DNA of 60,136 nucleotides, counting the filler, from Sphacelaria rigidula (Eukaryota), in the NCBI GenBank assembly GCA_964200075.2. It is 10 parts of 10 records of this genome, joined end to end, with 100 filler letters (N's around TTAATTAATTAA, not from the genome) between each part and the next. Parts side by side here need not be neighbours in the genome. Positions count along the whole stretch, not along the records: positions 54,214 to 60,136 come from CAXNAA020023457.1; 9 more parts are not named here. The stretch is one strand, 5' to 3'. Under the pieces are notes generated by a model. The model was not told the DNA's origin. It made no database searches and was given only the letters and a program-made list of their open reading frames with translations. How positions within the stretch are numbered: the first letter of the stretch is position 1; each line of letters opens with the position of its first letter. The translations under genes were made by a program, and so were the position numbers. Below, one piece after another: positions 29,546-58,001 of the stretch.

Positions 29546-30272
29546 GGGGAAGAGGTTGTGTGTGGGGGGGGGCGGGGGGGGCACAGTTCGATCGATGAAG
29601 GAGGACACCTACGGGTCACGCTCGTAGGTGAATGGGCTGGCAAGCAAGGGAGCGCACGGTGGAGATATCATCCGAAACAGCCCCTCCCGGTAGTGGATCT
29701 CTATATCTTCGACGCAAACTGTTTTTGCGTGAACGTCTGCGGCGTTTTTTTATTCGCAAAGAACGTTCATCATGTGAAGTGATGCACTTCGTCCAAGAAC
29801 AGACAACGCTGCCTCAGCTCGTGACCGATTGACACATGAACAAGCACACAGCCAACAAGCTGGGTGAGAACGACGCTACAGACTGAGCTATCGGCCGCTG
29901 TGTCGGGCATAGTATATCTCGTGATCACCGTGCGAACAGGTTTGAGGCAGGGGGGGGGGGGGGGGGGGTCACTATTTTTTTTTCCCCTTTGTTTTTTTGT
30001 TTTTGCCCCCCCCCCTCTTTNNNNNNNNNNNNNNNNNNNNNNNNNNNNNNNNNNNNNNNNNNNNTTAATTAATTAANNNNNNNNNNNNNNNNNNNNNNNN
30101 NNNNNNNNNNNNNNNNNNNNAAAGTGTTTGGGGGGCCAAATGCCCACCAAAAAAGGCAAAAAAAAAAAAAAAACCCCCCCCCCCCCCCCCCCCCCGCCCC
30201 CTCGTTACACTTCCAACTCCTTCCCTTCCTTGAGACGAGCCCGCCATGGAAAGTGAATCAATCAATCTCTTA

Positions 30273-30546: not shown

Positions 30547-30869
30547 ATCTCTTGTATACTGGTATCGCGTATTGGACCATGACCAAAAAATCCGCACCAT
30601 GTCGATTCTCGCCGAAAAAACATTTTTTGTCACTCAAATCAGACGCCTTCTCAAAAGAAGAAAATGAGTGCGGCATTTGCCAGGATTAACTGTTGTTCCT
30701 GCGCTGAAACAGCACCCAGTCGTATCATTTTAATTCAGACCACCTGTCCGCGGTACCCCATAACCAGGATATTTTTATCGGACGACGCATTGCACTCATG
30801 GATGAACATTAACAACGAACACTTTTGTCACACTTGTCAACACCTTCCCTTGAAAAAAACGGAGATAAG

Positions 30870-31672
30870 AGGAAATTGAGGTGAGAATATAGCGTAACGA
30901 ACATGCAGAGGAAGAGATTGCCAGCCATAGTTGATAGGACTGTATGAAAGAAAATTACGTAAGGGCATGCTGGAATAAGGTGGGATAAAAAAGTTGAGAT
31001 ACTATGGAAGGAGTTAGGAGGAAATAAAGACGGGATACTGTCCATAGGTGAAGGCGCGGGGTGCAAGACAAAAATAAGGGACATTATACAAATAAGGGTG
31101 AAAGGAGCGCTCACACACGAGGTAGACGAGGAAGAATGCCTGGAGATATACGGGGGGTTGAGAGAGGGGATAGGGGTGGGAAAATATCTGCATGGCCCCA
31201 TGGACGCGGCGAAACATCTAAACTACGATTTCGGGTGGGGGACCTGGACCTGCCAGAAGGAAGAAAGAGATTTACCAGTCGTCGAGAGCAGGAAGTAGAT
31301 CGACAGAACTGCTCTTGTGGCAAAGGAATAGAGAGCAGAAGTCATATAGTGGCAGAATGTGAACTATATGAGGAGGAACGGGACGTGCTAGAGGGAGAAA
31401 TGCGGAACGTGAATGGAGGTGGCATGAAATCGTTTGATGCATCGGACAGTAGGAAGAAAACGATGGTTATACCAGGAGATAGATGGTGGCCGCAGACGGC
31501 GAAACAGGACGGGGATAAGATGTGTGAAAGGTTCTTTGTGTAGTGTGTGAAAGAAACGTAATGAGCACCTGAATGTTGGAGGTGTCTCTATTTGCAGCAG
31601 GGACGGTGCTCCGTTTCGAAAGGGATGCGTTGTCAACGGTCGAACGACTAAGGCAGGCAACAAATGAGTACG
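30870..31672 (+). mobile_element. Non-LTR retrotransposon (LINE) ORF2 C-terminus and 3' end, family A, degenerate
   Basis: YGGLREGIG..YLHGPMDAA..LRFRVGDLDLPEGRKRFTS..CSCGKGIESRSHIVAEC (CxCx8Hx4C knuckle typical of LINE ORF2 C-termini)..GDRWWPQTAKQ; ends caaatgagtacg plus a C-run. Confidence 0.75.
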
Positions 31673-31870
31673 CCTTCCCCCCCCACCCTTCCCCCCACCC
31701 CCCCACCCCCCGCCGCCTCGGGAGCAGTCCGTACAGTAGCCTGCAAAATATCAATCTATCTACATCATCTCCCCCAGTCAGTCCCCACGCCTGCACCTTT
31801 ATCCACGGAAAAAAACATTGAATCAGCGCCACCTGTGAACGTTCTTGGACTTGACTCTAGTCATTCTCAC

Positions 31871-31946: not shown

Positions 31947-33207
31947 CTACATAATCCACCCGAAACCAAGCAGTATCGACGTGCTCGTTTGTCCGCAGGG
32001 ATGCGGCGACACACCGTAATAGAATCCAAGCAAGTCGACTACATTTCGTCGACGGGATGTGGGCCAAAACGTTTCCAAACTTACACCCCCGAGTTTCGAA
32101 CATCGCTTCTGCCGCGACCCGGTGGTGTACATTGAAACGGTAAAACTGATACCAGTGGGGTGGAAATAACACGGGTCCGATTCCTGCCAGATAGATGCGT
32201 TTTTTTTCTCTTTTTTTCTTTTTCCTCACGAAAAAATATCTGATTTCCGTCCTTGGAAAGCGTGAGGACTTTGAGTAGGAAAACAAAAAAACGTTTGTTC
32301 AACGGAGTTTGTCTGACGAGAGTCGACGCGGTGCGGAAATAATGGTCATGATTCAATCCGCGATAGACACCAAAATGCGACTCGTGTAGAGTCATGAGTC
32401 ATCCTACGATACGGCAGGTGGGGGGGAAGGGCGTACTCATTTGTTGATTGCCTTAGTCATTTGACCATTTACCAACCATGACCAGGAGGGGGAAGGGGTT
32501 GATTCCACGAAGAAGAGCTCATGGGTGTGTCAGACGTCTTACCACACTCGTGGTGCGCTTGTATTTGGGGAGAAGCGGTGTTAAGCATTAATAGTATGAA
32601 TGAGTGTTACTGTTATTCATCGGTAACAACCGTGTCCGAGAAACTTTTGCTACTTCCGTCGAAGAAATGGCCCCAGATACCCCCCCCATGGTCCGGCGAG
32701 AACCCGGCGTGCTCCGTCCTGGCTTTGTAGGGGGCGGACCCTCGATCGGGTTGGCGTCGGTTGGCCATGACGCTATAAAACACGCCACTCACTGCGTAAG
32801 TTAGGCTACCAGTCTATCGATTTTTTTTTAACGCACTTGCGGGATTTTTTCCGGTAACCATGATGGCAGTCGAGCTAGATCATATTATGCCGTGTGGGGA
32901 AACCTCAACTCCGCAAAATGGGGATGATCGTACTACGTAGTGTTTAAATGGAGGGCGCGCGGGGAGGGGGGGGTATGGATATGTACGCGACATACCGTTT
33001 TAGTGGACGTGTCTATTATCTTATAAACTGTTTTTGGATAGGCCAAGAGGTGATCATCGCCAAGAGCTGCATCATTTTCTGCTATCGCCACCGCCACCTC
33101 CACAGAAGGTCAAGAGTTACACACTGCTCCATGGCTGTCTCGCACCATAGACGCACCACGGAGGGCGCGGGGGGGGGGGGCATGGATACGTACAGCACAT
33201 GACTCAC

Positions 33208-33322: not shown

Positions 33323-36300
33323 CTGGTGGACAGCATAACGACGACAGTAACCGATTGATTCGATTTGATTGATTGATTGATTGATTGATTGGATGATTCC
33401 TGAATTCATCACCAATCGTCCAACGCCGGCTGATGAGCTGCCGCGGACTCTCCAACCGTGGTCGTAACGTGGGCGCAACTAAATGTGAGAGCGAAGCGGG
33501 AAATACTCGCAAATGAAGGAAGGTCGAAGAGAATGAAGCCAAGAGCGATAAAAGAGGTACAAACGATGTCAAAAATACGAAACAGAATGATTGCGCGAAG
33601 GTATATGGATTGACCACTTTCTCGCTACTCGCGTACAGCCGATAGTGAACCCATCGTCCTAACTGACACCTCGATGAGTGAGCCCATCCATCGCTGAGGA
33701 TCCCAGCAAACCAAATTTTACCGACACTTTGATTTTTTGCAGTGCCAGTTGGTACCGGTCCATTGGGGTTCGGAACCAAGACCTCACGCATGGGTGCATA
33801 CGAGGAACAGAAAAAAACGACAGAATCGCTACACATTCCCGCAAACACGAAAGTAACGGCAGTCTGATCATTTGTTTTCCAGTCTAAACTTCGGTCATCG
33901 CAATGCTGTCAGCCACAGTAATCGGGCCTGTACTCTCATTAGCTGCGGTCCAGGCTGTAGAATAGGGTACAGTAGTGCGCACGGATCACACAATGTTGTA
34001 GGTATTTTCTTATAGCGGCGGTACAGTAGTGTTGGTGAGCTGAGGGCAAACCAGGAATTTATAGGAGGCTTCTGCCTGAGTAAACTATTGATCGATTCAG
34101 TGATTCATTGATTGATTAATTAGTTGACTAGTTGATGAATTCAATGAGTGTCGCACTACGTTAACTATTCCTCGAGGGATCCAGCCATGGACATTATCCA
34201 CAAGATATAAGAATCTGAGGTAAACAAAACGGACACGCTCGCCAGAGAAAAAAAAAAGGGAAAAGCAAGAGGGTAGAAGAACAAGAAGAGAAAAAAAAAG
34301 ACGGAGTGAACTGAGAAACAACAAATGAAGACACATCAAGAGAGGTGTCCGTATTATAGGCTAAATTCCGATCAGCATCGCTCACGACACCTCTTATTTA
34401 CGTCTGGATTCAAGTCTGGAGCATTCGATGCTGAATAACGAAGGGCTGAATCTTACTGATAGTAACAAAACACAAGACAGGTTTCTCCTAAATGCTCAAA
34501 GTTCCGCGGACTTGAGTACAGGTGCCCTTGTGTGCTCGTTCACCGAACCCTAATTAACCCTCTCAGCGCGGCGCCTTGATTCGGTACGATGTTTTTCGGC
34601 TGACAGTCCCGCTGTCGTGACTTATCGCTCGGAATGGCGTGCAGTTTTCTCTACAGGATAAATATAGATGTTTGCGTGAAAGTACAGTCTGTGGTTGTTT
34701 TGCCTGTCTGTCTATCTGTTTGCTTTTGTTTCCGTCTACTCCTTGGTGTCTGTTCTACTCCACCTTTTCTGTTTTTATTATTTCTTCAGCGAGTGCTTCA
34801 ATCTTGTTTTCGTCTTTGGTACGTACGTCCAATCATGTGGATAATGACCACGACTGGATCATGACTACCTGGGGGATCAGTCACAAGTTCGATAAACAAT
34901 CAATCAATCAATCAATCAATCGATCACAGTACGGTGGTCCGCCAGTACTCTCCCGACGCCGAACGTACACAGCGCTTGCCATCAACCACTCGCAAGCAAG
35001 CTCGCTCTGGGAAAATGTGATGCTGGACAAACCTTTGCTTGATCTTATATTTGCCGCCGTGCGTCCATCTTTGGCCTTTTCAGATACTGTAACAAGTGAA
35101 CTGTTCGTATCTGCTTATCCCAATTCGGGTGTACTTCCGTATCACCCGCTTGCGCTCGATGATGACACCCTCTCAACTCGCGTATCCATCTGTTCGTATC
35201 AAGGCGTTTTCATTGTGACCAAAGCCGCCGTTTTTCACGTGTCCATCTGTGTCCCGTCTGAGGGGTCCCGTGACAAAGGAGTTCAAGTGTCAGAATATCA
35301 AGCATTTCCCAAGAGGAATTCAAAAGCCCACCAGCAGTTACGACTGAGCAAGCAACGGTTGCCCGGGAGAGTGTCAACTGAGCGTGCGTTTCCCCAACAC
35401 AAGTCAAGTTTTGAGGGGATGGCAAAGCGCACCACACTACACTTCCCTCGAGCACAACACAAGTAGGGGCTTTCTTCCCGGGCAAAGGTGAGCGAAATAG
35501 AGACGTTATTTCCGACACGATTTACATTGAATGACAATGTAAAGTCATCATACATAGCAAACAGGTAAAAAGCACACCTCACGAAATATCTACCGACATA
35601 CATGCGGCTGTGGAAGCAATGTGTCACAGCTACATGTACTAATTAACCGGATGACAGTCGCCGGGCCAGGCACGGGGGTATAGATACCCATCATCCTACG
35701 CTCGACAAAGTAAGTGCACGTCAACCACTCGAGTACAGTGCTGGGGTAGGTGGAAATAAATGGGTTAATCTCTCGGAAATATCGATTCGTCCCGAGCAGG
35801 GACAGAGCTGGTGTACTTATTTGTTGCTTGCCTTAGAGTTTTGACCCTTTAGACCCGAGGAGAGGGACGGGGGGGGGGGTGCCCATGATCTTGCATGCCA
35901 CATCATATGACCATTGACCTCGCAACCTTACAAAGCCGGCACGGATCACGCTTGGTTTCCGCCGGACCAGGCTAGGAGGAGGGGGGGGGGGGGGGCGTGC
36001 TCATTTGTTGGTTGCCTTAGTCGTTTGATCATTGACCACGCATCNNNNNNNNNNNNNNNNNNNNNNNNNNNNNNNNNNNNNNNNNNNNTTAATTAATTAA
36101 NNNNNNNNNNNNNNNNNNNNNNNNNNNNNNNNNNNNNNNNNNNNCCCAAGCGTGGGAATTCCCAGCTTCTCGTTGTGCTCGGCTTTTCTCATTTCGATTT
36201 ACGTCAAAATTTTGCCTCCCAAAACCATGCGCTGATTTGGAGGGGGCTATCGCAGAAAGTGTCCTAAGCTCACATCAACAACTCCCATCACACAAAACAC

Positions 36301-36399: not shown

Positions 36400-39300
36400 A
36401 CAGACGAAGCCTTCACCCCCCGGGCAGGGACGGTTTCGACGGTGCTGGATATCCATTATGTGCAGAGTCATGAGCTATCGTCACACCAAACACTGCCCCA
36501 ATATCAGCAGCACCACCACCCTACTGCATACCACGCACCACCATATCCCCACCATCCCCCACAAAACGCCTATCAACCTTCCCCACCAACAGACAACTAC
36601 CCACAGCAACCTAACTAACAATATCACCATCCCGCACCAACAGACCACTACCCACAGCAACATTCCCAACAGTAATAACCACCGGGCCGGCAGCACCACT
36701 CTTACTACTATCCTAACCCGGAAAACAGCCTTCATCACCAACAATACCAAACCGCAGCCCCACCCCACGACCAACAGTAGCAGCATCAGCAGCCGAGCCC
36801 CCCCCAGCTACATCTGCTCCGTCTCCCGATACGTACACCTCGGAGCATCCACGCCGATATATGACAGTTTCCATGCCAAAAGGCGAGTCTCGGTTTCGGC
36901 TTGGTAATGTTGATTTGCAGGGATATGCTATGATGCATCGTGAGGAGGTGTCAGAGAGGTGATGATTTGGAAGAGTGGATATCTGACACCGGGGCCTCGC
37001 ACCATTCTACTGGAAGCATGGAGGGGTTGTTTGATGTGCGAGTTCCCCCTCATGGTAACGAGAATGTGGTTTTAGGATATGGTACTGTGCTTCCAGTAAG
37101 AACCGTCGGTAGCCTTGACCTCAGATTTTACATGGGACTCACTGACGGGGCTGAGCGCACTTGTTTTTGTGTGAAGCTCACTGACGTGTATGCGCTTGAT
37201 GGTATGAAGTCCAACCTCTTCTCTTGACATCAGGCACAGTACAAACAGGGCATTACTTTGACTAGAGCAAGCATATCGTTGTTGAACGGGCAACTACGAT
37301 TCGACCGTAATTCGCGTTCATCTCCTCAATTCGCGAAACGTTTGCCGCCCACATCGGATAATGCTTCGATTGCAGTCCCGGCCATGGGGGAACATTCTAC
37401 ATATACTGTGTCCGCGCGTGTTACTGTCAGTGCCCCCCCGACTGCTTCATCTTCGCGTGCTACTATCAGAAACCCTTCGACTACTGTGCCTTCGTGTGCT
37501 TCCGTCGGTGGAACCCCGGCTACTGTAGCGCAATCTACTGCGACGGTGGCTTCGCGTGCTACTGTCAGAAGCCCCCCGATTACTGTGTCTTCGCGTGATA
37601 CTGTCAGTAACGCCCCGAGTACTGTGTCTCCGCACGATGCTGTCAGAACCCCCCCGGATGCTGTGTCTTCGTGTGCTTCTGTCGGTGCAACCCCGACTAC
37701 TGTAGCGCAATCTACTGCGACGGTGTCTTCGCGTGCTACTGCCGACTCATCCAATAGGTTTCCCACAGGATTGACTCCTGTTCCAGGTTTGCACTTACCG
37801 GACCTACTTTTGTCCGAGGAGGATGAGATTGCTACATGTAGTCCCTCAGAATTTCCCCTCGAGTTCTAGGCCTTTAGGAATTGAGTGAGGAGGAGGTTTT
37901 GGATTTGGTGCTTGCAGTTATAGCCCCCGGCCGTCGACCATCCACTGTCGGCAAGCCCCAATAAACGTTGGACATCAACTACCATCACGTTTCCCTCTAT
38001 CATGCTCACGAGATCATTCTCCGAGCAACTGCCGCCCAATGGGGCATTACTCTCACAGGGCAGCTGACACAATGCACAGGATGTGTGGAGTCAAAAGGGC
38101 GACGCGCCGCGATCCCACATTGAAGTGCTCTGTCACCCACGGTCCTCGGCATCGTGCACCTCGATCTCACGGGCCCGCATGTGCGGACACTAGGCGGTTC
38201 ACTATACATGCTCCCCTGTGTGGATAGTAAGTCTCGTTCCATCGTGCTTTGCGGCTTGGCGAGGAAGGCACACGCTTTGGCATAGGTGAAGGGATACGCG
38301 GCCGTCGCCATATCAGTTCGGTGTTCCTCCGTGCTTCCGATAGAAAACGGGGGTGGATTTCGTTCGCAACACTTCATCGATTTCGGTGACGAGGTACGGA
38401 TTCGCCGCGAGTACACAGCGCCCGACACCCCGAAGCACAACACTGTGGCCGAGAACGCAATCCGGCGCACGATGAAGGTTGGCCACGCTGCGCGATGTGA
38501 CGCTTTGCGCCTTTTCCCGTTGGGGCCTTCACGGACATCCCCGGACTCGGTGCCACCTCGCATGGACTCTGGTTGGAGTCTGCGGTGTGGGCTGCGGATG
38601 GCTTCAACCGCTCTGCCGCGATGGCCAACCCTGGGAAGGTCCCGCCGTACCAGTTTTTCACCGGCCGTGCCCCTCCTCTCCAGATCGTTGCCTTCCTTCA
38701 CCCTGGAATGATGAGGGTCACATGACGCTCCAAGATGGGCCCGCAAGCTGTCAAGTGCTACTATCTCAACAACGACTGCAGAGTGATGCTACGGTGGGGT
38801 TGCACTTTTTGAGCGAAAATGTTTCTCGGGGTGTTGGGCGGATCATTTTGAGAATCGACATCATTTTCACTTGAAAAAGACTGAAAATGATGCAGAAATA
38901 CGAAAAGGCTCCTGTGTGCATCTCCATGTCTTGTCCCCGGAGATTTGGTTTATACAGTGAGCCCCATATATTTGGGCTCCTACAAAAACGAGGCCCAGAA
39001 ACAAAAAGGGCAACCCCTATCGTAGCATCGCTCTGCAACTATTCATCGTCAACCGTGAAGGTCATCAAAGCCTCAACCGGCTCCGTCTATTATACCAATA
39101 ACATGGTCCGGACAGTGCCTCGTCTACCACTCCAACCATCAGCGCCGCTCGACGGCAGGAGGGGGGAACACGGCAACACCGAGACTTTAGCTTCCGCCGC
39201 CGCCGCCAACAACCCGCCGCCGCTGCGAAACCATACTACCCCACAACCGCAACCATATGCCGCCGCCGCTGCCAACTTGCCGCCGCCGCACCGTGTTGCT

Positions 39301-41670
39301 CCACGATCACATCATCCCGCACCCGGCGCCGCCGTCTACAACTCGCCGCCGCCGCGAAACCATTCTCCCTCACAACCGCAACCACATGCCGCCGCCGCCG
39401 CCAACTTGCCGTCGCGCCGCCATGCTGCCCCATGATCACATCATCCCGCACCTAGCGCCGCCGTCTACAACCCGCCGCCGCCGCCGCAAAACCATGCTAC
39501 CTCACAGCTGCAACCACATGCCGCCGCCACCACCAACTTGCCGCCGCGCCGCCATGCTGCTCCACGATCACATCATCCAGCACCCGGCGCCGCCGTCTAC
39601 ATTCCGCCGCCGCCGCCGCCGCGAAACCACACTATATCACTACCGCAATCATATGCCGCCGCCAACTTGCCGTCGCCGCCACACCGTACTGGTCCGCGTC
39701 CTTATCATCCCATCTCACCACGACCATATTATACTGCTCCGCCAGGACGACAGCACAAACCTTCCAATCCCGTCCCGCCGCGACCTTTCAATTCCCTCCC
39801 GCCGCGACAATGACTTATTATCCCATTTCCCCGCAACCGCAACATACTTGCTACCGCCACTACATCGCACGACCGTGCCACCACCGACATTTACACCGAC
39901 TCGTGCGGCACATCATCCACCTCTACCTTCCGCCACATCGTCGGCACCACCACCATCCGTCGCCACGCAACACGAACAAAAGCAGCGCGACACACTGCCG
40001 ACTTCACCACTCCAGCAACCGCATTCGCTGCACCGTCAACCAACTTCACCCCCGATTTTCAATGGTTCTTCGGCACCATCATCCATTTCAGAGGCTTCAT
40101 TATCAGCAACTCACCATCTACAAGACCACTCTCCATCACCTTTGCCGTTGCCCGACAAGGTGGTTAAGGAACTGGACCTGAGTAGTGACCCTCCGCAACC
40201 GGGAAGGACCCGATCGGAGACGGCCCAGCATACAGCCGAGAGGGAGAAGGGCGACAGCATCGCGCTTTTTCATCGTGAGAGGGATCTTTTTGCGCAGCTC
40301 GACAAACCATCCCTTTTATCCGCCCACCTCACGCGCTCCGCAACAGAGGCCGGAAGGAAGCGGCAGGGCGATGGGGCAGGGGGGCGCAAGGGTTTGCAAT
40401 ATCGGACTGCCATTACGATGGCAACGCGCGAGGACATCAACATAGCGATGGAGGAGGAGCGTCCCCCGCGTGAACAACCTGAAGTTCCACATCGCCCAGT
40501 GAAAGAGTTGAAGACACCAAAGACATATGCTGAAGCAACACATCCGGAACACGAAGGGGTATGGGAGGACTCCATGGCGCGAGCGTTTCAAGGCATGAAG
40601 AAAGCGGGAACCATGGATGCGGTAATATAGCAATCAGTAGATAATATTATTCCCGCGAAGTGGGTTACAACTGGAAGGCTGATGAATTTAGCTGGCCAAC
40701 AAAAGCGAAATCAAGCCTGGTCGCAAGGGGAGATCGACAACGGGCAGACATCGACTTTAGTGAATTATATGCACCCACAGTGGCGGTTTCGAGTGTACGA
40801 TTGCTGACAACACTTACTTGCTTGTGAGCAAAATCTTTGCTTGCGCCATTTTGATATCGAGCAAGCTTTTGTGCAGTCCGTACTGGACGAAGATATTTTT
40901 ATGCGTTTGCCTCATGGCTGTTGTAATTTATCTGGTAAGGTAGTGAGACTCAATGAATCGCTCTATGGAGTCAGACAGGCTTCGAGACAGTGGCACCTTC
41001 ATTTAGCAGGAGGCCTTACGAACCTAGGTTATGATCAGTGTTTGGCAGATTCGTGTGTGTTCTGACTGATGGAGGACAACCAGGTAGTGATCACCTTGGT
41101 CGTACATGTAAATGATATCTTTGTCGTAGGGGATGAGGAAAGCTGTGATGAATTTGGTAAGCAGCTGAACACGATGGTTCCAGTCAAGAATCTAGGAGAA
41201 CTGCGATGGTATTCGGGACTGTAACACGAGAGATACTTGGAAAGGGGGACCCGTACTGTATCGTAACATAAGTTTGCAGAGGAATCGGAGGAGGAGTACA
41301 ATATATCATGGGAGAATAAGACGCCTATGAGTGCAGATGTAAAACTCTAGGATTTCAATGAGGATGCACAGGTCATGGCGTTCCCATTCAGAGCATTGGT
41401 AGGATCACTCATGTGGCTAGCAAACTAGACTAGACCGGATATTTGTGACGCAGTGAGAGCGGTAGCGAGGAATTGCGCATCCCCAAGGTAAATTCATTCG
41501 CGTACTGCTCTTGGTATACTTGGGTATGTTAGGCGAACGAGTACATTGGGTATCACTTTTCGGAGAGGCAGTCTGCAAGGTCTCAGCTTCCAAGCATATA
41601 TATGCTGATGCAGACTACGCGAGTAAGGCTGCCGATAGTCGATCAGTGTCGGGTGGACAAGTCATGTACG
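36400..41670 (+). mobile_element. Decayed Ty1/copia retrotransposon pol (protease-integrase-RT-RNase H start)
   Basis: WISDTGASHH protease; HHVSLYHAHE..CTGC; VHLDLTGP and EYTAPDTPKHNTVAE integrase; PKTYAEA, LVARG, HFDIEQAF, SLYGVRQASRQW and VHVNDI RT motifs; TRPDI; YADADYA RNase H. Multiple stops and frameshifts. Confidence 0.93.
38779..39035. mobile_element. MITE inserted in the copia integrase C-terminal region
   Basis: ~32-bp TIRs cagagtgatgctacggtggggttgcactttt / aaaagggcaacccctatcgtagcatcgctctg split the reading KCYYLNN...YSSSTVKVIKASTG. A related terminus lies at ~17862. Confidence 0.8.
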
Positions 41671-41835
41671 GGGGGGGGGGGGGGTTCTCATTTTTTGCTT
41701 GCCTTAGTGGGGGGGTGCTGGCCCGGGCACCCCCTTTGGGAGGGACCACCGTTCNNNNNNNNNNGAGCGCCATGGTCCGGCTCACGTCCCGGGGGGTGCT
41801 GCTCGGCGGTTGTTGGGGGGATGGTGGTTGCGGTG

Positions 41836-42067
41836 TTCGTACTCATTTGTTGCTTGCCTTAGTCGTGTGATCATTGACCGCGCATCCCTTTCGAGACGGA
41901 GCACCGTTCCTACGCCTAATGGAGGCACCTCCAACATTCTGGCACTCGCTACGTTTCTTCAAAAGCTCATTACGTTTCTTCCGTACATTACACAAGAACC
42001 TTTTACATATCTTTTCCCTGTCCTGTTTCGCCGTCTATGGCCACCATCTATTTCCTGGTATAGCCAT
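41836..42067 (-). mobile_element. LINE family A 3' end fragment
   Basis: Reverse complement homologous to ~31465-31672. Confidence 0.8.
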
Positions 42068-42167
42068 NNNNNNNNNNNNNNNNNNNNNNNNNNNNNNNNN
42101 NNNNNNNNNNNTTAATTAATTAANNNNNNNNNNNNNNNNNNNNNNNNNNNNNNNNNNNNNNNNNNNN

Positions 42168-42815
42168 CGTCCCGTTCCTCCTTGTATAGTTCATATTCTG
42201 CAACTATATGACTTCTGCTCTCTCTTGCTTTGCCACAGAGGCAGTTCTGTCCATCTACTTCCTCCTCCTTTCGACTACTGGTACATCTCTTTCTTCCTGG
42301 CAGGTCCAGGTCCCCCACCCGAAATCGCAGTTTCAATTTTTTCGCCGCGTCCATGGGGCCATGCAGATATGTTTTCATTCTGATCCCCTCTCTCAACCCC
42401 CCGTATATCTCTCCAGGTGTTCTTCCTCGTCTACAGTACCTTGCGTCGGAACGCTCCCTCTTCCCTTATTTTCATCATTTCTCTTACTTTCATCTTCTAC
42501 CCCGCGCCTCCACCTATGAACAGTATTTCGTCTTGGTTTCCTCCCATATCCTTCCATACTTTCTCGACTTGTCTATCCCACCTTATAGCATGCCCTTTCG
42601 TACGTTTCTTCCATACAGCCTTCGTCGAGGGGGTGGGGGGGGTGGGAGGCGTACTCATTCGTTGCTTGCCTTAAAATAGTCGTTTGACCGTTGACCACAC
42701 GTCAATTTCGAGACGGAGCACCGTTCCCACTCCTCATAGAGATACCTCCAACATTTCGGCGCTCAGTACGTTTCTTTCATACATTACACAAAAACCTTCG
42801 CATGTCTTATCCCCG
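42168..42815 (-). mobile_element. Two tandem LINE family A fragments (42168-~42625 and ~42649-42815) separated by a G-run
   Basis: REGIRMKTYLHGPMDAAKKLKLRFRVGDLDLP..CLCGKARESRSHIVAEY; the second piece is the 3' tail. Confidence 0.8.
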
Positions 42816-44182
42816 AGGGGAGGGGGGGGATGATAAATATTTTGAAGGAGTTGCGGTATGACCTTCTCGCGACCTATTTGCATCGATGACAGCGCAGCGC
42901 TGGCGCTCTTGAAAAGTCGGTCTATTTGGCATTGAGTGGAGACATTTTGTGCCCATCCAACATGTCAGTTGTACATGTCCAAGAACCCCTCGGTCGTTTT
43001 TCATCACCATACATGAGTGTTGATATGATTGCCTCATACCCAGTGTGAGCGTACAGACTCACCCAGGAGTAGCAGTGCATTTTTTTAGCGAGAATCTCCC
43101 GTGATGTTGTTTGTCGGATGACGAATTTCTAGTCTCGAACACTGTATGAGTCCCTTCACTTCACGACCACGGGTCCTTTCTGCCGTGCTGCTCCCCCAAC
43201 AGTACGATTTCTCCTTCCCTTTCTAAATCGCTTGTCGTATGTATCACTTTCGTCAGGCGCGGGCACTGCCCTCTTCCGTTCCTCCGGTCACTCTTGTTGA
43301 ACAGCTGCTTGACGCTGCAAATTTGTGTGGATGATACGTCGTTATTCAAAAATGACAAGCGCGTAGTTTGTCTTTGCTCTTTCGTATTGGGAAAGATGTG
43401 AAAATATGGAATCTGCACATCTGCGCGGACATGCGTGTGCCCGCTGCTTCAACCTCGACAAAAAAAGCGCTTGTGCTGGTGCGTGTGTTCTTGTCTTGTT
43501 ATCCCATTTATTCTGGACGCCAACCGACACACACCTTTCGGTATGAGTGGGCGCATCAGCTGGGGTCACACAGAAAGGGCAACAGAGGATGTTTTACTTG
43601 GCTCATTTATTTTACAAGCGGCATTTGTCTCAGGTACAGTACTTGCGAGACGGGACACACGTCGAGGCAACCTCACCGACAGCATGAAGCGGTACTCAGT
43701 AGCAGCACCGCGCTCGATTCTTACAACTCACTATACAAAGCCACACCCAAAACACATCGTATCTCGCACCAGCTACTCTTGAACTTCCAGAAAATCTCAT
43801 TGTATGAATAGAAAAGCGTACCCAGCATACCCGGCACGGCCAAGGCCTGCGCTTCTACTTCACTTCTCACATTGCGATGCACTACGCCCCTTGGACACCA
43901 CACACACACGCACACACATGACCCTCCTTCAACGCTTCATCACTATGAAATGACAACGCAACGTACCACACACACACAGTGTGGCGATCGAGAACATCAC
44001 CAGCATACCCTCACCCCCACCTCCCAGTCTGGAAGGTGGCGGCGGGCGCGGCTAAAAAACGCGGCAGACATTCAATTATGACGATATACGAAAACGTACG
44101 CACCAAAACACTACTTGAAATAACACACTGCTCATCTTGGCAGGCTGCTTATGCCTCCCAAGGCTCGCTGTGTACACGACCG

Positions 44183-47439: not shown

Positions 47440-47932
47440 CTGCGTGGGAGACACAAAGTTTTGAAATTGAAAAAAAGTGTGAGGTGCGGTGCGGCACACA
47501 CGGTGTGGAGTGCTCTGGATGATGGCGCATGTGTAATCGGTCACGGGTATGATACAATTGGAGAGCCACCTACCGTCCCTGCTACAATAAACGCAAGCAT
47601 ATGCAACCGGTGAACGTGGGATTCTTTGTAGCAGCCAAAACAGGCAAGACAGGAAAGATAGAGTTGGGTATCAATTAGATATTTTCACGGCCACCTTGTT
47701 ACGTCATGGGTAACAGTGACAGATACTCTTCCCGTCCCTGCTACATATATATATATATATATATAGCATGACACTGAATTTTGATATAGTAGTCGTCCAG
47801 CTTAAGGTGCTACTGCAGCAGGCGCATTGCTGTTCCACTCCGTAATGTGAGTAACCCCCCACGACCCAATTCTTGCCTCCGAAACAAGTTTCTGAGGGAA
47901 ATATCACTAATCCCCCCCCCGCCCTCCCCCTC

Positions 47933-48090
47933 AATGTGCTCGGTCTCGAAGTGGATGCGTGGCCAATGATTGAACGGCTAAGGAAAGCAACAAATGAGTA
48001 CGCCCCCCTCCCCCCCCTCCCGCGGGAAGTGGACGAAGGTGGCATGCAATCGTTTGATGCATTAGACAGTAGGGAGAAAACGATGGCTAT
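47933..48090 (+). mobile_element. Two head-to-tail LINE family A fragments bounded by C-runs
   Basis: C-run, 3' tail ending caaatgagtacg, C-run, then REVDEGGMQSFDALDSREKTMA. Further short A pieces at ~2745-2812, ~12100-12145, ~32432-32475, ~35995-36044, ~54027-54113 and ~55810-55880. Confidence 0.78.
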
Positions 48091-52640: not shown

Positions 52641-55600
52641 AAACAAAACCTCGTGTGCATCACGTCGAATATAAGCCGGGATAAGGGTGTACATGGGCGC
52701 TCGTACCAAGCTGTATATCTCGCGTGTCGGGATATGGCCGCGGGAACGTGTCTAGAATCGGCAGAACATCTAATGCCCATTAATTAAGGGCAGCGTATTC
52801 ATTCGCCACGTGCTGTAGATGTGGCTTGTGTGGATGTGGTTGGGTGAGAAGTGGTTCGCTTTTTGTTGTTGTGCTGAGGTGTGCGGCGCAATTCCTCTCA
52901 TTCTCGATCAGGCGGGCTTACCACGGTTCGTATAATAGCCCAAATTCGTACAGGGTAGTTGACACATTTTGGGAATAGCCCTAACCCTAACCATAACGTA
53001 TCCGAAGCATACCGAGAACCCTCGGGCAAGGGGGGGCTCAACGGGTGCCGTAGGCGAAGTGTGCGTTGGTAGACCTCAGATCATTGTCGCCCCCCCTAGA
53101 AGATCCGAATATCGGGTAAAGTCTGCCGTCCCCGACAGCCATCTGTATCGAACACAAGGTCAAACACACACGAGCAGCGGGCATTAAACGGCAGCGATGA
53201 GCTTGTCGTCCTTATCAACCCCTGTGTCAGGTGGTACAGATGTAGCGGGGGGTATCTATCTATCACCCCAACTTTACTGATCCCTCCAGTAGTTTCTCAC
53301 AACTTAATAGTGAGTGGACAATGACAAGTAAGCTGCACCAGCCTCACTCAATGATGACAAAATGTTGCTGCACGCCAGTTGGCCAATATATTCCCTATAT
53401 GCGTGATTTCTGTTATACGCCCCACGTCCTTCCTCCTTGTGTCGATGTAACGCCTACAAAATCGTACTCCGAAAACTTGCGGGACTGTCAGGGGACAAGA
53501 AAAAATCGGAACATATAACAAACCAGGGCGTTGACTAACCCCTCGACCGGCCTGGTGTATCCATCTGTTGGGTCGTTATCATTTTCACTTGAAAATGATG
53601 AAAATGATTTCTACACTCAGAGGGTCGACCTGCAGGCGCTCAAGGGGTTGGGACTTCGAACACCCAATACTTTCTGTTCTAAGAACCCGGCCTGACAGTC
53701 TCGTGAACATTTGGAGTATGGTAATTGTACGCGATAGAGGCTCTTTTTGTGACATCTGGGCACTGGTTCATGAACAAAGGAATTTTTTTCTCATCTTGAA
53801 GTATTGGCAGGTGTAGCAGATCTTGTTCATCGTTGAGCGCGCGGGTTGAAGACTGGTGTTTTTATCACACTTTGTTTCGTGCGTGCCCATAGCATATGTG
53901 GTGGTGACATGATCGCTGCTCATGGTCTCCCCCTACGCAGCATTACGAATGCGATTTGTACTGTACTGTACCCGACTACAACACGGATAAATACGTGCGT
54001 TTGGCAACGACCTGCCCCCCCCCCCCTGGAGAGGGGATAGGGAGTAAAGCATATTCGCATGGCCCAACGGACGCTGCGAAAATTCTGAAATTGCGATTTC
54101 GGGTGGGGGACCTNNNNNNNNNNNNNNNNNNNNNNNNNNNNNNNNNNNNNNNNNNNNTTAATTAATTAANNNNNNNNNNNNNNNNNNNNNNNNNNNNNNN
54201 NNNNNNNNNNNNNTATAAGAGCATGGGCCTGCAAACTTCAAATCCGCCTCTAGGCTGGCCCAGCTCGTATAAGCAATGATACGTTCCAGTTGTAAAATGA
54301 CGCGCACGCGGCTGCCGTTACTCCAATGCTGAGCAGATTCCGTCAAACGAACACCGCGTGAGCTAGGAAGGACTAGCGCTTGAGCTCATGCGCGTCCACG
54401 GTTGATGCTTGTCCGTGTTTTTTCGGAGTTCGATGTGTAGGTGAAGGACCACCGAGATGTTGAGTCAACGACCAACGAACGCCGTGTATTGAATCTCATC
54501 TACAGATTTAGACGAATGCAATCAAAGGGTAGGATTCGACAGCACCCTTTCTCCCCTCCCCGATGATGTCATGAGCATATCTCCCCCAAAACCCTCACCT
54601 GGGGTGTGTGTGTGTGTTATTTGATCCTGTGACCGATTGCGAGCGGACTACGTGATCCTTGTGAATGCATGAGAGGTATCGTGAAAACATCGGAACCTTC
54701 ACTATGTACCCCTAGAATAGTCAGGAGCACCACCGTTTTTTTCAACAGGACCCAGCGTTGGATTCCACTCCCGGGTGTGGTTACCTCCCTCTCCCTGGAC
54801 AGATGGCTCAACCTCCACATGAGATATCAGCAAAAAAATCAAGGTGTTTTCAGTGTAGTCGTACGTGCCACGCAGTACATTTTTTACTCTTGATGAGGTG
54901 TCGAATGTACTGAAACAGCCGAAACAGAAGCGGGGCAACACTAGCCGGCAAGTTCTTCTAAAAATGAAGTGGGTTGTTCAGGACCCGTCCGTCCAAGTGC
55001 TGACACTTCAATTCGCGTTTGCGAAGCCTGACTTTACCCAACTTGGACAAAAGTTATGTCTAAAATACCCCACTCATCCGACAGCGTAGATGCGATTTTC
55101 CCAGTTGCCTTTTGTGACAACGGGTCTATATTACCTGTACTAGCGATGTCGGGTGTTTTTGGTCATTTTTCAGCGGACGAAGGGCTAGTATCGCAATGGA
55201 CACCTCGAAGTCGGCGTCTCCACCAAATTCCAGCCGAACACATATTTTTCCTCGAGTTGGGTCGGAATTGGGCCCGCGAGACTTTGACCCGGATTACCGC
55301 GGAATTGCCCTGTGGCTCCCTCAGTATGGTGGCGCCACGCCTTGTGTAGTCGGGTGCTGGGTGACTGCCCTTGACGGGGTCTGGCGCTGTGAAAGCAGCA
55401 TTTGTTGGTCACCAGCAGTCACTGGTACGCTTCTCCTCTCCTGTCCTGCACAAGCTGGGCAAGAAATCGGGGGTCGCCAATATCAACACGCGCCAGGTCA
55501 ATATTCCGCGTGGGCACCTGATATTTTGATGTGTGACTTGCACGTGACGCGTCCTCACATTCGAAGCTGGTCCGTGTGTTTTTTTCGCCGACTTGATCCG

Positions 55601-56395
55601 ATTTTCCGCCCAGCTTGCTCCACTAACCATCAACTCTCTGTCGCTTGGCAGCGCCTCTCTATTGTCGGTGCACGAGGCGATACTCGTGTACAGAAACCCG
55701 CGACCTCACTGGCATACGGCACCACATGTGGACAAATGTGGATGTGAACCCTTCAGCACCTACCCGTCAGTTCACCAACAGTTGGCCGGGTTTTTTTGGA
55801 GGGAGGGGGCGTACTCATTTGTTGCTTGCCTTCGTCGTTTGACCATTGACCACGCATCTCTTTCGAGACGAAGCACCGTTGTGTACCCCTGAGCATGCAT
55901 GCCATAGTCATAGGACCGTTGACCTCGCATTTTTTTTTGGGGGGGGGATGCTTGTTTTTGGTGGAACGATAAGGCCTGCACACATGGTCACATGTGCATG
56001 AACCACGATCAGCAGCACGCTGCCATCTCGGGACAGTAAACATTCCAACAGTACATTAGCGGTGATGATGCCAAGAGTAGTACATGTGTGAGGACATGCG
56101 TGTACTTTCTGTGTTCTGTAAGCTAGGGTCTACAGGTTTACAACTAACGTTCACCCCAAAGGCGTGTGTGTAAAACAGCAAAGTTCGTATCTTGCAAATA
56201 ATGAAATGCATGGGAAGTCGATGAAACACAGGAACACCTTGAATTCTTCCCCAAATTCGACCGTCTTCTGACATGCTCCTTGTGGACATGAGTGGAACGC
56301 TAGAGGTGGTTACGGACGAGCTGTACCTGCCGTCTGCAGGAGAATTAAGCTAAGACGAAAAGTTTTAGCATTTTCATCCCCCCCCTCCCATGAAA

Positions 56396-56766
56396 TACGT
56401 CATGTTGTGCGGCGTGGGAGAACCTCAACTCCGAACAATGCGGATGTACCACGGAGTGTTTAAATGGTGAGGCACCCATGAGGCAGTGTAAAAGCCGTGA
56501 CTGTCTCAGGAAGTGGCGTACCAGAAAATAAAGAAACTCATTGTAGGCTGTCATCCACATGCAAGATACTCAGTAGGCTTCGGGCGGAACCATCTTAGCA
56601 GGATGCAGCTCACTCGTCATGCGACTCGCCGAACGCACCACGGCGCTTCGCGCTTGGTGATCGAGTGCAAGCCTGGCCCCGCGAAAACCCGGCGTGCTCC
56701 GTCCCGACTTTGTAGGGATATGAGGCCAATAGCCTTATGACTATGGCATGCATGATCATGAGTACA
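56396..56766 (+). mobile_element. Retroposon family B copy with a C-rich target-site duplication
   Basis: 5' flank cccccccctcccatgaaa, 3' flank ccccccccctccatgcaa. Confidence 0.75.
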
Positions 56767-56846
56767 CCCCCCCCCTCCATGCAACAGGGGCGAAGTATAG
56801 CAGTTTTCTGGACAAATGATTTCTTCGGCCATTCGGTCACGTGGAA

Positions 56847-57280
56847 CAGGGGATTTTACAAATTGGGGATGGATTTTTTATTGGGAATGAAAACCCGGAT
56901 AATGAAAATCTTCGTATTCACACCAAATATTCGAAACATGGTTCCATTTCTTCACTTGCTGGTGGCTATTGACAACTACCACACGCCATACAAATTTGGA
57001 TTTCGATAACCGAAATGTCGGGGTGCTAGGTGAAAAACCAATGTTGGCGTCCGATCGGATCTAAATCTATCTAAATCCCTCAAAATTGGTTTCGCACCCA
57101 GGACCCCGACATTTTGATTGTCGAAATCCAAATTTGTATGGCGGGTGGTAGTTGTCAATAGCTACCAGCAAGTGAAGAAATGGAACCATGTTTCGAAGAT
57201 TTGGTGTGGATACGAAGATTTCAATTCTCCGGGTTCTAATCCCCAATAAATAACCCATCTCCAATTTGTAAAATCCCGTG
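56847..57280. mobile_element. Foldback MITE with ~195-bp inverted arms
   Basis: ~56847-57040 is the near-exact reverse complement of ~57087-57280 (e.g. ttcgaaacatggttccatttcttcacttgctgg). Confidence 0.85.
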
Positions 57281-58001
57281 TAAGCAACAGCTGTTGAAAA
57301 ATAAATGATTTCAACTTGAAAAGTAAAGGAATGCATCAAAACGAAGAAGGGTCGGACACGGTCAAGGGTTCATACAAGCTCAACTACCCTGACTTACGGG
57401 ACGGAGGAAAGATGAAGGTTCCAACACAGCTAGTGTTGCTCTGCAGCAGAATGGCGTGGCGTGGCGTACTTGATCGGAGGTGAACTTGCCGAACGCGGCG
57501 CGTACGGGTTCTTAAAGCGTTTCACATTTTCTCCACGCCAATTAAAGAGCTGGACGAGCGCAAGCTGATACAAACACAAGAAACGCGCATAGCGCCGCAG
57601 CGGTGAGCTAGTCCTTCTCACGAATCTCTGTTGCCCAGGAGGGCGCTCTTGGTGTTGGAAGTCAGGAAAGGCGATGGACGGCCTCGGTCGCCTCTTTGCG
57701 CTTTAAACGTCTATGCATGAACACGAGAGAACCCCAGCCTGCCCGCTGAACCATGATGAACCTAGACTGCCGTAATCATCGTGGTAAAACTCGTGAGAAA
57801 CGTGCCTACCCGGCCAACTGGCGGCGAAACACATCTATTGCACACTACACCTTCAATATCCAAAACCAAGAAACGTCGTGACTATTCAAGAGCAGATTTT
57901 CTCAACAGGAGTAGTTTTTCTTCATAGATTGCTCTGCTTTGCATCGCGCTTCCAATTTCCTCTTTTTCTTTTCCTTTGTCATGCTGTAAAAGGAGCATAA
58001 T

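Follow-up and report, generated by a model that had tools for sequence, protein, structure and literature searches.

The window, a 60,136-nt stretch of DNA from Sphacelaria rigidula, consists of ten pieces of ~5.92 kb joined by spacers (N44-TTAATTAATTAA-N44), and several of the repeat copies that it holds are cut by piece ends. These copies fall into two families, A and B, with a common 3′ end. Within the window, 17 such ends could be defined (11 of family A and six of family B), ending ...ATGAGTACR. The motif GAGTACRCCC, allowing at most one mismatch, occurs 17 times against 4.98 expected, with a maximum of 11 in 100 shuffles, and C7 words number 248 against 7.7 expected. Family A copies start at Aref 1, 223, 463, 524, 571, 664–667 and 693–696 and run to the same 3′ end. 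Target duplications of 13–24 nt flank B1, A4, A5, A8, B3 and the two-element insert B4+A12, so that variable 5′ truncation, a common 3′ end and flanking target-site duplications, the hallmarks of a LINE, are found together. The copies and the runs beside them are as follows; those whose target sites are compared in detail are given further below.

2735–2812, minus strand: A1, a 67-nt family A 3′ fragment with C11 on its 3′ side and, exceptionally, only CCCC on its 5′ side
6025–6099, plus strand: B8, the 3′ end of a family B copy, which lies at a piece start and has CCCCCACCCCCTCACCCC after it
12049–12145, both strands: tail-to-tail pair of B9 (plus, ending at 12072) and A2 (minus, 12145 to 12100), with C13 G9 C G4 C between them and a C6 run 5′ of A2
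24102–24212, minus strand: B6, a truncated family B copy cut by a piece end, with C7-TG-C6-T-C11 directly 5′
29027–29581, minus strand: B2, the longest family B copy (29545 to 29035), with C8 at its 3′ end (29027–29034) and C8-G-C9 upstream (29564–29581, 19–36 nt from the 5′ end)
30822–31672, plus strand: A3, the longest family A copy in the window, a degenerate stretch of ORF2 (residues ~1079–1360 of the related protein P0155), with a 40-nt C-rich run on its 3′ side (31673–31712) and none on its 5′ side
32680–32951, plus strand: a C8 run, B7 (Bref 419–462), 15 nt and B5 (Bref 11–211)
35812–36044, minus strand: a nest of three copies in the order A6 (36044 to 35996, cut by a piece end), C15-TCCTCCT, B3 (35973 to 35878), C10-GTCCCTCTCCTC and A5 (35853 to 35812)
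41670–41749, minus strand: A13, the degenerate 3′ end of a family A copy, with a run of 14–15 C after it and its 5′ side lost to an N10 gap
41838–42629, minus strand: A7, family A, running across the spacer at 42068–42167, its 5′ end adjoining the C-rich run after A8
42650–42815, minus strand: A8, family A, inserted in the run 5′ of A7
47936–48002, plus strand: A9, a family A 3′ fragment between C-rich runs at 47912–47932 and 48003–48021, the latter adjoining the 5′ end of A10 (48022–48090)
54015–54113, plus strand: a C12 run (54015–54026) directly 5′ of A11, which is truncated and cut by a piece end

Twin priming was considered for the pair at 12049–12145 and rejected, as it places the tails outward.

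Coding capacity of family A

Judged from its sequence, family A corresponds to the 3′ part of a non-LTR retrotransposon (LINE) whose single ORF encodes an APE-type endonuclease and a reverse transcriptase. The window itself carries the C-terminal part of the ORF, on which tblastn places residues 1079–1360 of P0155 (30822–31664). This relative of 1360 aa is 74% identical over 94% of the fragment P0003, which in turn is 73% identical to the ORF of the window. In P0155 an endonuclease domain (Exo_endo_phos, PF03372, residues 170–392, E 3.4e-12; also PF14529, E 3.3e-07) lies N-terminal to a reverse transcriptase domain (RVT_1, PF00078, residues 740–989, E 9.8e-31), the arrangement of APE-type LINEs, and a C-x-C-x8-H-x4-C motif is present at the C-terminus; Pfam found no RNase H in this protein. 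These last two features do not in themselves place the LINE in a clade. Among solved structures, L1 ORF2p is the closest match to the reverse transcriptase region (E 6.6e-21), followed by R2 (E 8.8e-20), whereas no solved structure was matched significantly by the endonuclease domain when taken by itself. These results agree with the preliminary description, which had taken family A for the C-terminus of a LINE ORF2.

A second relative, L006, has an open frame of 1382 codons, 88% identical to P0155, which ends AAC AAA TGA GTACG C13. The LINE stop codon lies 5–6 nt ahead of the C-run, leaving almost no 3′ UTR. The 1067 nt that precede the open frame in L006 match neither the window nor the other loci, and no C-run is found in the 1 kb upstream of the frame.

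The C-run on the 3′ side

Defining a 3′ run as at least eight C within the 12 nt after ...GTACR, we find one at 14 of the 17 ends, compared with 1342 of 118142 background positions (1.1%). The three ends without a run are those of A5 (35812), A7 (41838), whose 3′ flank is degenerate and C/A-rich, and B4 (55882), which is the internal joint of a two-element chimera. Poly(A) follows ...GAGTACR at none of the 17 window ends and at none of five external ends, and the poly(A) or A-rich tail of an L1-like, poly(A)-dependent LINE is thus not seen. One stretch of seven A, after the run of copy A12, is target sequence, since it is matched by eight A in the 5′ flank. The preliminary description had reported GAGTACRC followed by a C-run, with no poly(A), at nearly every copy of both families, and the counts bear this out.

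Could the runs be produced by sequencing or assembly, through poly-G calls or joins at homopolymers? Homopolymers are error-prone, the window has N gaps, and the tail-to-tail C13/G14 joint at 12073–12099 is odd. Against this, a search of unrelated public contigs with a pattern that held no C-run returned five external copies, all five with a 3′ C-run; they come from other assemblies (three marine-metagenome contigs and two MAG contigs). The same end with its C-run is also found in Logan contigs from four runs belonging to two studies, and the unique flanks of the runs match across the insert. We therefore give an artefact hardly any credence. Viral sequences yielded no further copies.

The Logan contigs also bear on the length of the run. 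Those that diverge from the window after the run of B1 number 441 (X1), 526 (X2) and 95 (X5), and their consensus continues for 15–20 C before agreement is lost, compared with the 9 C of B1 itself. This suggests that, genome-wide, many 3′ runs exceed 20 C, which is longer than most duplications seen here, and tail growth by read-through or slippage possibly contributes somewhat to them.

The C-run on the 5′ side and target duplications

A C-rich run on the sense strand lies within 30 nt of the 5′ junction in 14 of 16 junctions, against a background of 2.56%, and G-runs occupy none of the 16. The 5′ flanks are thus far from background, as the preliminary description had anticipated from C-rich sequence at several truncation points, and each of the examples it gave is confirmed (56378–56784, 32415–32498, 42649–42815, 12086–12151, 29027–29581 and 47912–48021). 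Ten of the 14 runs are free-standing, with no copy ending in ...GAGTACR ahead of them, and eight of these ten are immediately preceded by A or T; each of the remaining four (at A5, A7, A10 and B3) is at the same time the 3′ run of a copy that lies upstream. A 3′ run with no 5′ counterpart is seen in two window copies, A1 and A3, and in the external copy L004. What is found is one type of repeat, in one orientation, on both sides of the element, as in LINEs that target simple repeats.

In several cases the repeated sequence extends beyond the homopolymer. In B1, A4, A8, B3 and B4+A12, the run together with 3–9 unique bases is present on both sides, at similar run lengths:

56396–56766, plus strand: B1, a 5′-truncated family B copy (Bref ~139 to end) ending ...CATGAGTACA, also given as ...ATGAGTACA
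56378–56395, plus strand: B1 5′ target duplication, C8-T-CCC-ATGAAA
56767–56784, plus strand: B1 3′ target duplication, C9-T-CC-ATGCAA (compared as ...TCCCATGAAA versus ...TCCATGCAA)
55811–55930, minus strand: chimeric insert B4+A12, with B4 (55930 to 55883) joined directly to A12 (55879 to 55811)
55931–55947, minus strand: 5′ duplication of the chimera, C9 A8 (eight A)
55791–55810, minus strand: 3′ duplication of the chimera, G-CCCCCTCCCTCC-A7 (seven A); C9A8 thus faces CCCCCTCCCTCCA7
32432–32482, minus strand: A4, a 51-nt family A 3′ fragment in the C-run of a repeat, D
32483–32498, minus strand: A4 5′ duplication, CCCCTTCCCCCTCCTG
32415–32431, minus strand: A4 3′ duplication, CCCTTCCCCCCCACCTG (...CTCCTG versus ...CACCTG, with an internal TT in both)
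12205–12385, plus strand: paralogue of repeat D without an insert, with C8-T-C6 at 12354–12368, then TATCGCAGGATGAATC

For A8, C8-T-C4-TCG (42814–42829) faces C8-A-C5-TCG, with seven extra C-rich bases next to the element on the 3′ side (42626–42649); for B3, C15TCCTCCT faces C10GTCCCTCTCCTC. A5 has a duplication without a C-run (GTCCCT..CTCGGG) and no 3′ C-run. In B1 (12 and 12), A4 (16 and 17), A9 (21 and 19) and B3 (15 and 10), the length of the 5′ run equals or exceeds that of the 3′ run, or nearly so.

A permutation test in which C:C matches were down-weighted was not significant, 2695 of 20000 permutations reaching the observed sum, in a test that is underpowered and crudely scored; the score of 12 for the 5′ flank of A5 paired with the 3′ flank of B3 arose only through overlap. 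The unique part of the duplications accordingly rests on a few individual cases.

An empty site and nested copies

When A4 and one copy of its duplication are removed, the filled repeat D becomes colinear with the copy at 12205–12385 through a single run: the uninserted copy has one C8-T-C6 run at the very point where, in the filled copy, A4 is enclosed by two. A C-run that pre-exists the insertion, the state predicted for empty sites in the preliminary description, is thus present here in a paralogue rather than an orthologue. For the other sites, none of the Logan contigs among the matches listed for piece 10 joins 56377 to 56785, the contigs ending ~30 nt inside the repeats, and the B1 5′ junction is present in X1 in its filled state. 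In unique DNA, the strains from which X1 and X4 derive are ~0.3% different from the window. Likewise, no Logan contig among the matches listed bridges the B4+A12 site, where the contigs break at the repeats. Non-templated addition by the reverse transcriptase was rejected as a source of the 5′ C-run, which lies distal to the unique duplicated bases and is present at the paralogous empty site.

Copies are found in the runs of other copies: the run that precedes A7 contains A8, the one that precedes A10 contains A9, and the one that follows A6 contains B3. The same arrangement, a family B 3′ end with its run, 5–20 letters, and then a 5′-truncated B or A copy, occurs in the Logan contigs in at least 12 of the matches listed. 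An alternative is that the C-run is entirely encoded by the element or added enzymatically and that C-runs play no part in the choice of insertion site, the 5′ runs being the tails of neighbours in tandem arrays or the products of template switching. Four of the 14 5′ runs do belong to an upstream copy, and B4+A12 is one clear template-switch chimera. However, ten runs stand free of any preceding copy end, unique bases after the run are repeated on both sides, the run is present at the paralogous empty site, where there is no element, and the joint of the sole chimera (...GGGGTACAC/AACGGTGC) has no C-run. An origin of all runs as tails is therefore very improbable, and we consider it close to refuted.

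Family B as a short partner

Family B is non-coding and ~510 nt long, and has only its last 55–75 nt in common with family A; the blocks common to both in one alignment (alignment A2) are GGGATGCG.GGTCAATGGTC and ACTA.GGCA.GCA...ATGAGTAC. It has the C-run on the 3′ side, the 5′ truncation and the duplications of family A. With its longest copy at ~510 nt, family B is too short to encode a reverse transcriptase, and in sharing its 3′ end with a LINE it resembles a SINE. The likely route of its mobilisation is copying in trans by the protein of the LINE.

LINE/SINE pairs with a common 3′ end, such as UnaL2/UnaSINE1 of the eel, are examples of “stringent” recognition. Family B and its LINE are like these in having the same 3′ end, but differ in that the shared part is, on the LINE side, coding sequence (the last ~20 codons), and in that no conserved stem-loop was found at the 3′ end (RNAalifold on 15 ends: -2.11 kcal/mol, six pairs, none covarying). 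Nor was a head derived from tRNA, 5S or 7SL RNA, with a Pol III promoter, found in family B. Across the whole window no Rfam model reached its gathering score, 28980–29640 gave no Rfam match even with E allowed up to 1, and ARAGORN found no tRNAs. Since the head lacks such a match and contains a T7 run, the status of a classical Pol III SINE is not supported.

Proposed integration into C tracts

On the basis of the 5′ runs, the duplications and the paralogous empty site, we propose that families A and B probably use target-primed reverse transcription to insert, always in the same orientation, at (C)n·(G)n tracts, and that the 3′ run is mainly duplicated target. This is in line with the original suggestion of a sequence-specific LINE that inserts into C homopolymers, with the C-run as target duplication. 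In the proposed sequence of events, a nick would be made in the G-strand, at the 5′ edge of the C-run or close to it, and the 3′ end of the exposed G-run would prime cDNA synthesis on the RNA end ...AUGAGUACRC, aided by pairing with the terminal C or Cs. The second strand would then be cut 13–24 nt downstream, just past the run, and the outcome would be a run and a few unique bases on both sides of a copy that is usually 5′-truncated. Under these steps the 3′ C-run would be mainly duplicated target, with 0–7 Cs derived from the RNA. As each insertion would double its own target, copies would come to nest in each other's runs, and C/G runs would multiply.

How much of the run comes from the RNA is a question on which the copies differ. 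The seven and ~3 extra C-rich bases ahead of the duplicated part in A8 and A12, respectively, may represent a short RNA-derived C tail. The direct joint of B4 and A12, a single case, is a hint of an RNA end with no more than one C. It could be that the RNA has a substantial C tail, from read-through into the run downstream of the source copy or from slippage of the reverse transcriptase, and that an endonuclease of little specificity leaves nicked G-ends that pair with it, much as the poly(A) of L1 pairs with T-rich nicks; the 3′ run would then be mostly tail, and the 5′ run the short paired part of the target. Besides the extra bases of A8 and A12, this reading would account for 3′ runs that exceed their 5′ counterparts (C11 versus CCCC in A1, 14 versus 6 in A2), for the long 3′ runs of A3 and L004 where no 5′ run exists, and for the Logan consensus that extends beyond the run of B1. 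It is at odds with 5′ runs that equal or surpass the 3′ run (B1, A4, A9 and B3), with the full length of the single run at the paralogous empty site, and with the chimera, where the acceptor template, B, ends ...GTACAC and the joint has no C-run. Taking these points together, we regard a tail combined with microhomology as unlikely, and duplication of a C tract as the better account of most of the run.

A fuller version of target duplication can be offered tentatively, with less confidence than the proposal above. The RNA may end ...GUACRC with no tail of its own and the endonuclease may read the edge of (C)n·(G)n, in which case the family would make its own targets autocatalytically, and much of the C/G homopolymer content and head-to-tail nesting of the genome would stem from this process. 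It would then be the first C-tract-specific LINE/SINE pair, and would not belong to any clade in which target specificity is known.

Relation to known elements

The APE-type LINEs known to be target-specific insert into multicopy genes, telomeric repeats or di- to tetranucleotide microsatellites, and are mostly low-copy elements of animals. In the accessible portions of two surveys, microsatellite-specific APE-type LINEs include Kibi at (TC)n and Koshi at (TTC)n in the Tx1 clade, Mino at (AC)n and Waldo at (ACAY)n in the R1 clade, and, further, Dong at (TAA)n and Togen at (TG)n (PMC3812793, PMC4640811). The present family is like these in that an element with endonuclease and reverse transcriptase sits in one simple repeat in one orientation, and, as far as those portions describe it, in that the repeat is found on both sides and at the 3′ end and copies nest. 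It differs in its target, a mononucleotide C tract, which is absent from the lists in the same portions of PMC3812793 and PMC4640811, and in its host, a brown-alga-like stramenopile rather than an animal. Its apparent copy number is very high, not low, and the duplication includes the run and a few unique bases, so that the second nick falls outside the repeat.

Mammalian L1 is described, in the part of PMC3812793 available to us, as using T-rich/A sites with the consensus 5′-TTAAAA-3′ and as having a poly(A) tail. As in L1, pairing is possible between the RNA 3′ end and a homopolymer at the nick, the duplication starts with that homopolymer, and copies are 5′-truncated with target-site duplications of variable length. 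In contrast to L1, the homopolymer is C, without poly(A); it appears to be mostly a pre-existing target at full length rather than a tail added after transcription; and the ORF stops 5–6 nt before the run, with almost no 3′ UTR. Zorro3 of Candida is another element that inserts at homopolymers, in its case poly(A) tracts. Neither a poly(C) tail nor a preference for C tracts is described for any LINE in the literature that we searched, in which subscription journals, Repbase Reports and supplements are thinly covered.

If the proposal is true, a high-copy LINE of C homopolymers, together with its partner, in a brown-alga-like genome widens both the target range and the host range of such elements. 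It would also provide a simple system in which to ask whether recognition of the G·C helix by the endonuclease or primer–template pairing sets the specificity of a LINE. Finally, it would explain the excess of C/G runs, seen here as C7 words, and the shattering of short-read assemblies of such genomes at these sites, as seen here where Logan contigs stop ~30 nt into each copy.

The 3′ ends of both families

The sequence at 56378–56784, around the family B copy B1 (56396–56766, +), agrees with its preliminary description, according to which nearly all copies of families A and B end in GAGTACRC plus a C-run, without poly(A). This was borne out across the window, where we found 17 3′ ends (11 of A, 6 of B), all reading ...ATGAGTACR or near variants. 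At least eight Cs stand in the next 12 nt at 14 of them, as against 1342 of 118142 window positions (1.1%), and poly(A) follows none of the 17. The three misses are:

A5, 35812: no C-run after the 3′ end
A7, 41838: flank C/A-rich but degenerate
B4, 55882: internal joint of a two-element chimera, not a genomic junction

The C-run after the element end is not peculiar to the window's assembly. An external search pattern of 20–22 nt, which stops at ...GAGTAC and therefore does not select for Cs, retrieved copies in three contigs of marine metagenomes and in two that are filed in bacterial MAGs, and a run follows the element end in all five (C8, C10, CCTCCCCCCCTCCTCCC, C9TC9 and C13). Logan contigs of four runs (two studies) were also compared with piece 10 of the window. 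Contigs that match the B 3′ end and then depart from the window after 56775 number 441 in set X1, 526 in X2 and 95 in X5, with no entry for this site from X4 among the matches listed; past 56775 their consensus has 15–20 further Cs, after which agreement is lost. At the minus-strand A end (55801), the consensus of 41 X5 contigs is G16. Depth sums, which are not copy numbers, are 10^4–10^5 times higher in the A and B bins than in flanking unique bins.

On the minus strand at 32952–33195, GTACRTATCCATR followed by C8–C12 and GCGC(GC)CCTCC occurs twice, 200 nt apart, the lower copy adjoining the point where B5 breaks off. It is possible that this unit represents a third family with the same habit.

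Identity of the elements

The open frame at 31052–31543 encodes ...LDLPE.RKR...C.CG....ESR.H.V.EC.LY.. and has relatives numbering 663 (E ≤ 0.001); of the best 150, nearly all are fragments, with only three longer than 200 aa. Through a longer relative, P0003, we reached the 1360-aa protein P0155, which contains Exo_endo_phos, Exo_endo_phos_2 and RVT_1 and whose RT matches the solved structures of L1 ORF2p (E 6.6e-21) and R2 (E 8.8e-20). By tblastn, P0155 residues 1079–1360 map to 30822–31664 and shorter parts to other A copies, confirming the initial assignment of family A to the C-terminus of a LINE ORF2. L006, a contig in a MAG, carries a stop-free frame of 1382 codons with 88% identity to P0155; its first ATG is codon 49, and a GTG occupies the codon matching P0155's Met. 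The frames of L006, P0155 and two further relatives, P0157 and P0004, end ...TKASNK (AAC AAA TGA). Only GTACG lies between this TGA and the run, so that the LINE has almost no 3′ UTR and its conserved 3′ terminus consists of coding sequence.

In L006, the 1 kb preceding the frame contains no C-run and matches neither the window nor the other collected loci. Within L006, 4730–4800 (−), ~540–600 nt upstream of the frame, looks like the 3′ end of the LINE itself, reverse-complemented; no C-run lies alongside, and the likeness is unconfirmed by BLAST at E 1e-3.

The longest copy of family B is ~510 nt (29545>29035), other copies being 5′-truncated, and in alignment the two families have only their last 55–75 nt in common. 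No Rfam family or tRNA matches the head of B, and no conserved stem-loop was found in the common end (no covariation at the 6 predicted pairs).

Two genomes filed as bacterial MAGs contain eukaryotic retroelement contigs, which are probably algal DNA binned with bacteria. One (G001) holds the full-length LINE on L006 (G001:C43), and the other (G002) holds 10 LINE-protein matches and 13 family B-like copies at 67–82% identity, several of which end in GAGTACAC plus a short C-rich run. Among the short A copies of the window, 5′ starts cluster at reference 693–696 (n = 3: 35849, 32472, 12140) and at 664–667 (n = 3: 2812, 47936, 55879), which suggests that 5′ joining favours certain points or that a short sub-family exists.

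5′ junctions and target duplications

Sixteen 5′ junctions were placed by comparison with the longest copies (BLAST or tblastn) and refined by eye, excluding A6, A13, B8 and B9, which are cut by a piece end or N gap, and B5, which lies behind another B fragment. A C-rich run (C6 or more, or at least eight Cs in 10 nt, within 30 nt upstream on the sense strand) precedes 14 of the 16 vs 3014 of 117656 window positions (2.56%), and a G-rich run precedes none, so the C-rich sequence originally reported at 5′ truncation points is real. Four of the 14 runs are another copy's 3′ run (A5, A7, A10, B3); the remaining ten stand behind unrelated sequence ending AA, AA, AT, AT, TG, AT, AT, TG, AA and TA. 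The two misses, A1 (CCCC only) and A3 (no 5′ run), are exceptions together with the external locus L004: all three have long 3′ runs without a 5′ run.

In several events the order of parts is flank, run, unique bases, element, run, the same unique bases, flank.

Duplications flanking the insertions (5′ copy; 3′ copy)
B1: C8-T-CCC-ATGAAA; C9-T-CC-ATGCAA
A4: CCCCTTCCCCCTCCTG; CCCTTCCCCCCCACCTG
B4+A12 chimera: C9A8; CCCCCTCCCTCC-A7
A8: C8-T-C4-TCG; C8-A-C5-TCG
B3: C15-TCCTCCT; C10-G-TCCCTCTCCTC

The older copy A7 begins with the three bases TCG of the A8 duplication, and seven additional C-rich bases lie between A8 and its 3′ duplication copy. The 5′ and 3′ runs are of similar length (12/12 for B1, 16/17 for A4, 9/12 for the chimera, 14/15 plus 7 for A8, 15/10 for B3, 21/19 for A9). 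Given the order of the parts, the RT cannot have added the 5′ Cs as it finished cDNA synthesis. The unique bases alone cannot carry the argument, as they are only 3–9 nt long; a formal permutation test with C:C down-weighted was weak, true 5′/3′ pairs matching no better than mismatched ones (the observed sum was attained in 2695 of 20000 permutations). A5 departs from the pattern: its duplication, GTCCCT..CTCGGG, lacks a run, and its 3′ joint holds nine other bases.

A paralogous site without the insertion

An empty site lacking a C-run had been named as the observation to look for against target duplication; the one available, in a paralogue rather than an orthologue, carries a single run. 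A4 is flanked by repeat D (12205–12364 vs 32651>32485, 71% identity). The copy at 12205–12385 reads ...AATCAAAT, C8-T-C6, TATCGCAGGATGAATC, and the filled copy (32370–32660) reads ...AATCAA, run, A4, run, CCG-TATCGTAGGATGACTC. Once A4 (51 nt) and one copy of the 17-nt duplication are taken out, the two are colinear through a single run, which therefore predated the insertion of A4 and was duplicated by it. In the metagenome contig L002 (1–105), the LINE end and C10 are followed by TTATCATCGTAGGATGG, the sequence right of the run in repeat D; TATCG(Y)AGGATG stands to the right of repeat D's internal C-run and likewise after an independent LINE copy. By this match, two insertions seem to have used the same kind of site. 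No orthologous empty site appeared among the Logan contigs, which break off ~30 nt inside each repeat; the B1 junction is filled in X1, a set that departs from the window at a few unique positions.

Proposed mechanism, nesting and possible run growth

Insertion into C-runs with duplication of the run is supported, and is best explained by target-primed reverse transcription directed to (C)n·(G)n tracts. The G strand would be nicked at or close to the 5′ edge of the C-run, the G-run would then prime on ...GUACRC, and a second nick would fall past the run, 13–24 nt downstream, so that each insertion would double the target. Such doubling would account for the nests and, in part, for the surplus of C/G runs: 58 of 7 or more occur in 60 kb, ~24 of which touch an A or B end by our reading, and C7 words number 248 vs 7.7 expected. 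The proposal that the C-run is duplicated target, not tail, is supported by the run and unique bases on both sides and by the single-run paralogue, with the qualification that a few Cs from the RNA may lengthen the duplicated run.

A8 lies within the run before A7, A9 within the run before A10 and B3 within the run after A6, while A5 lies just past the run that follows B3. In Logan contigs, a B end and its run are followed by 5–20 other letters and then by the start of a B copy (56466, 56473, 56475, 56519, 56529, 56670, 56671, 56681, 56734) or an A copy (55800) among the matches listed, which comprise at least 12 entries, with 667 beyond those 12. By itself this pattern fits insertion into older runs or template switching.

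In the B4+A12 chimera, B ends ...GGGGTACAC and is joined directly, without a run, to AACGGTGC... of A. A jump of the RT onto the 3′ terminus of a B RNA would mean that this RNA bore at most one C; as a single case, the chimera is only a hint. Many genomic 3′ runs seem to exceed 20 C, which suggests that runs grow to some extent by read-through or slippage.

The tail-to-tail pair at 12049–12145 reads B9 (+) ...GAGTACA, C13 G9 C G4 C, GTACTC... A2 (−); neither simple insertion into one tract nor twin priming accounts for its C-run abutting a G-run. No recognizable A or B end adjoins the following long homopolymers:

47–97: G51
16556–16576: C21
16702–16719: C18
29950–29968: G19
30159–30195: A16 joined directly to C22

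Make-up of the window

The ten pieces measure 5923–5924 nt each and are separated by N44-TTAATTAATTAA-N44 at nine sites (5925–6024, 11949–12048 etc.); three N10 gaps are also present. Pieces 7 and 8 probably adjoin each other in the source, because a single minus-strand family A copy spans their 100-nt spacer (reference 1–446 at 42618>42168 and 524–733 at 42067>41838, 77 nt missing); the other joins have no such continuity. The DNA is eukaryotic and brown-alga-like, the nearest named relatives of its retroelement proteins being from brown algae (a Sphacelaria rigidula protein at 64% identity, several from Ectocarpus sp.). Other features are:

18073–21512 (−): Ty1/copia-like LTR retrotransposon fragment (Retrotran_gag_2 E 3.9e-10, Pol_BBD E 1.7e-10, weak rve match), several frames interrupted by stops
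39191–40630 (+): 479-codon open frame with GCC-rich tandem repeats, period ~63–135 nt (families D4, D8), without a Pfam match
56846–57281: MITE-like inverted repeat just 3′ of B1 (arms 201 nt, 89% complementary, 34 nt apart), highly repeated in Logan contigs

Relation to known target-specific LINEs

Excerpts of a 2013 review (PMC3812793) describe APE-type LINEs that target microsatellites, namely Waldo (ACAY), Mino (AC), Kibi (TC) and Koshi (TTC), listed with Dong (TAA), and a weak TTAAAA preference of L1. Excerpts of a 2015 paper (PMC4640811) assign most target-specific families either to the early-branching group with a restriction-like endonuclease or to clades Tx1 and R1, with Togen (TG) as a further example. 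A mononucleotide C target is named in neither set of excerpts. The full-text literature, a scope outside which lie most subscription journals, Repbase Reports and supplements, yielded no LINE that ends in poly(C) or targets C-tracts, although an earlier description may exist elsewhere; neither 'non-LTR' nor 'homopolymer' occurs in the main text of a brown-alga genome preprint (10.1101/2024.02.19.579948), and PMC12592211 holds nothing relevant. Families A and B resemble the simple-repeat-specific LINEs, with a partner that has a common 3′ end; what sets the pair apart from them, and makes it notable, is its homopolymer target, its host and its abundance.
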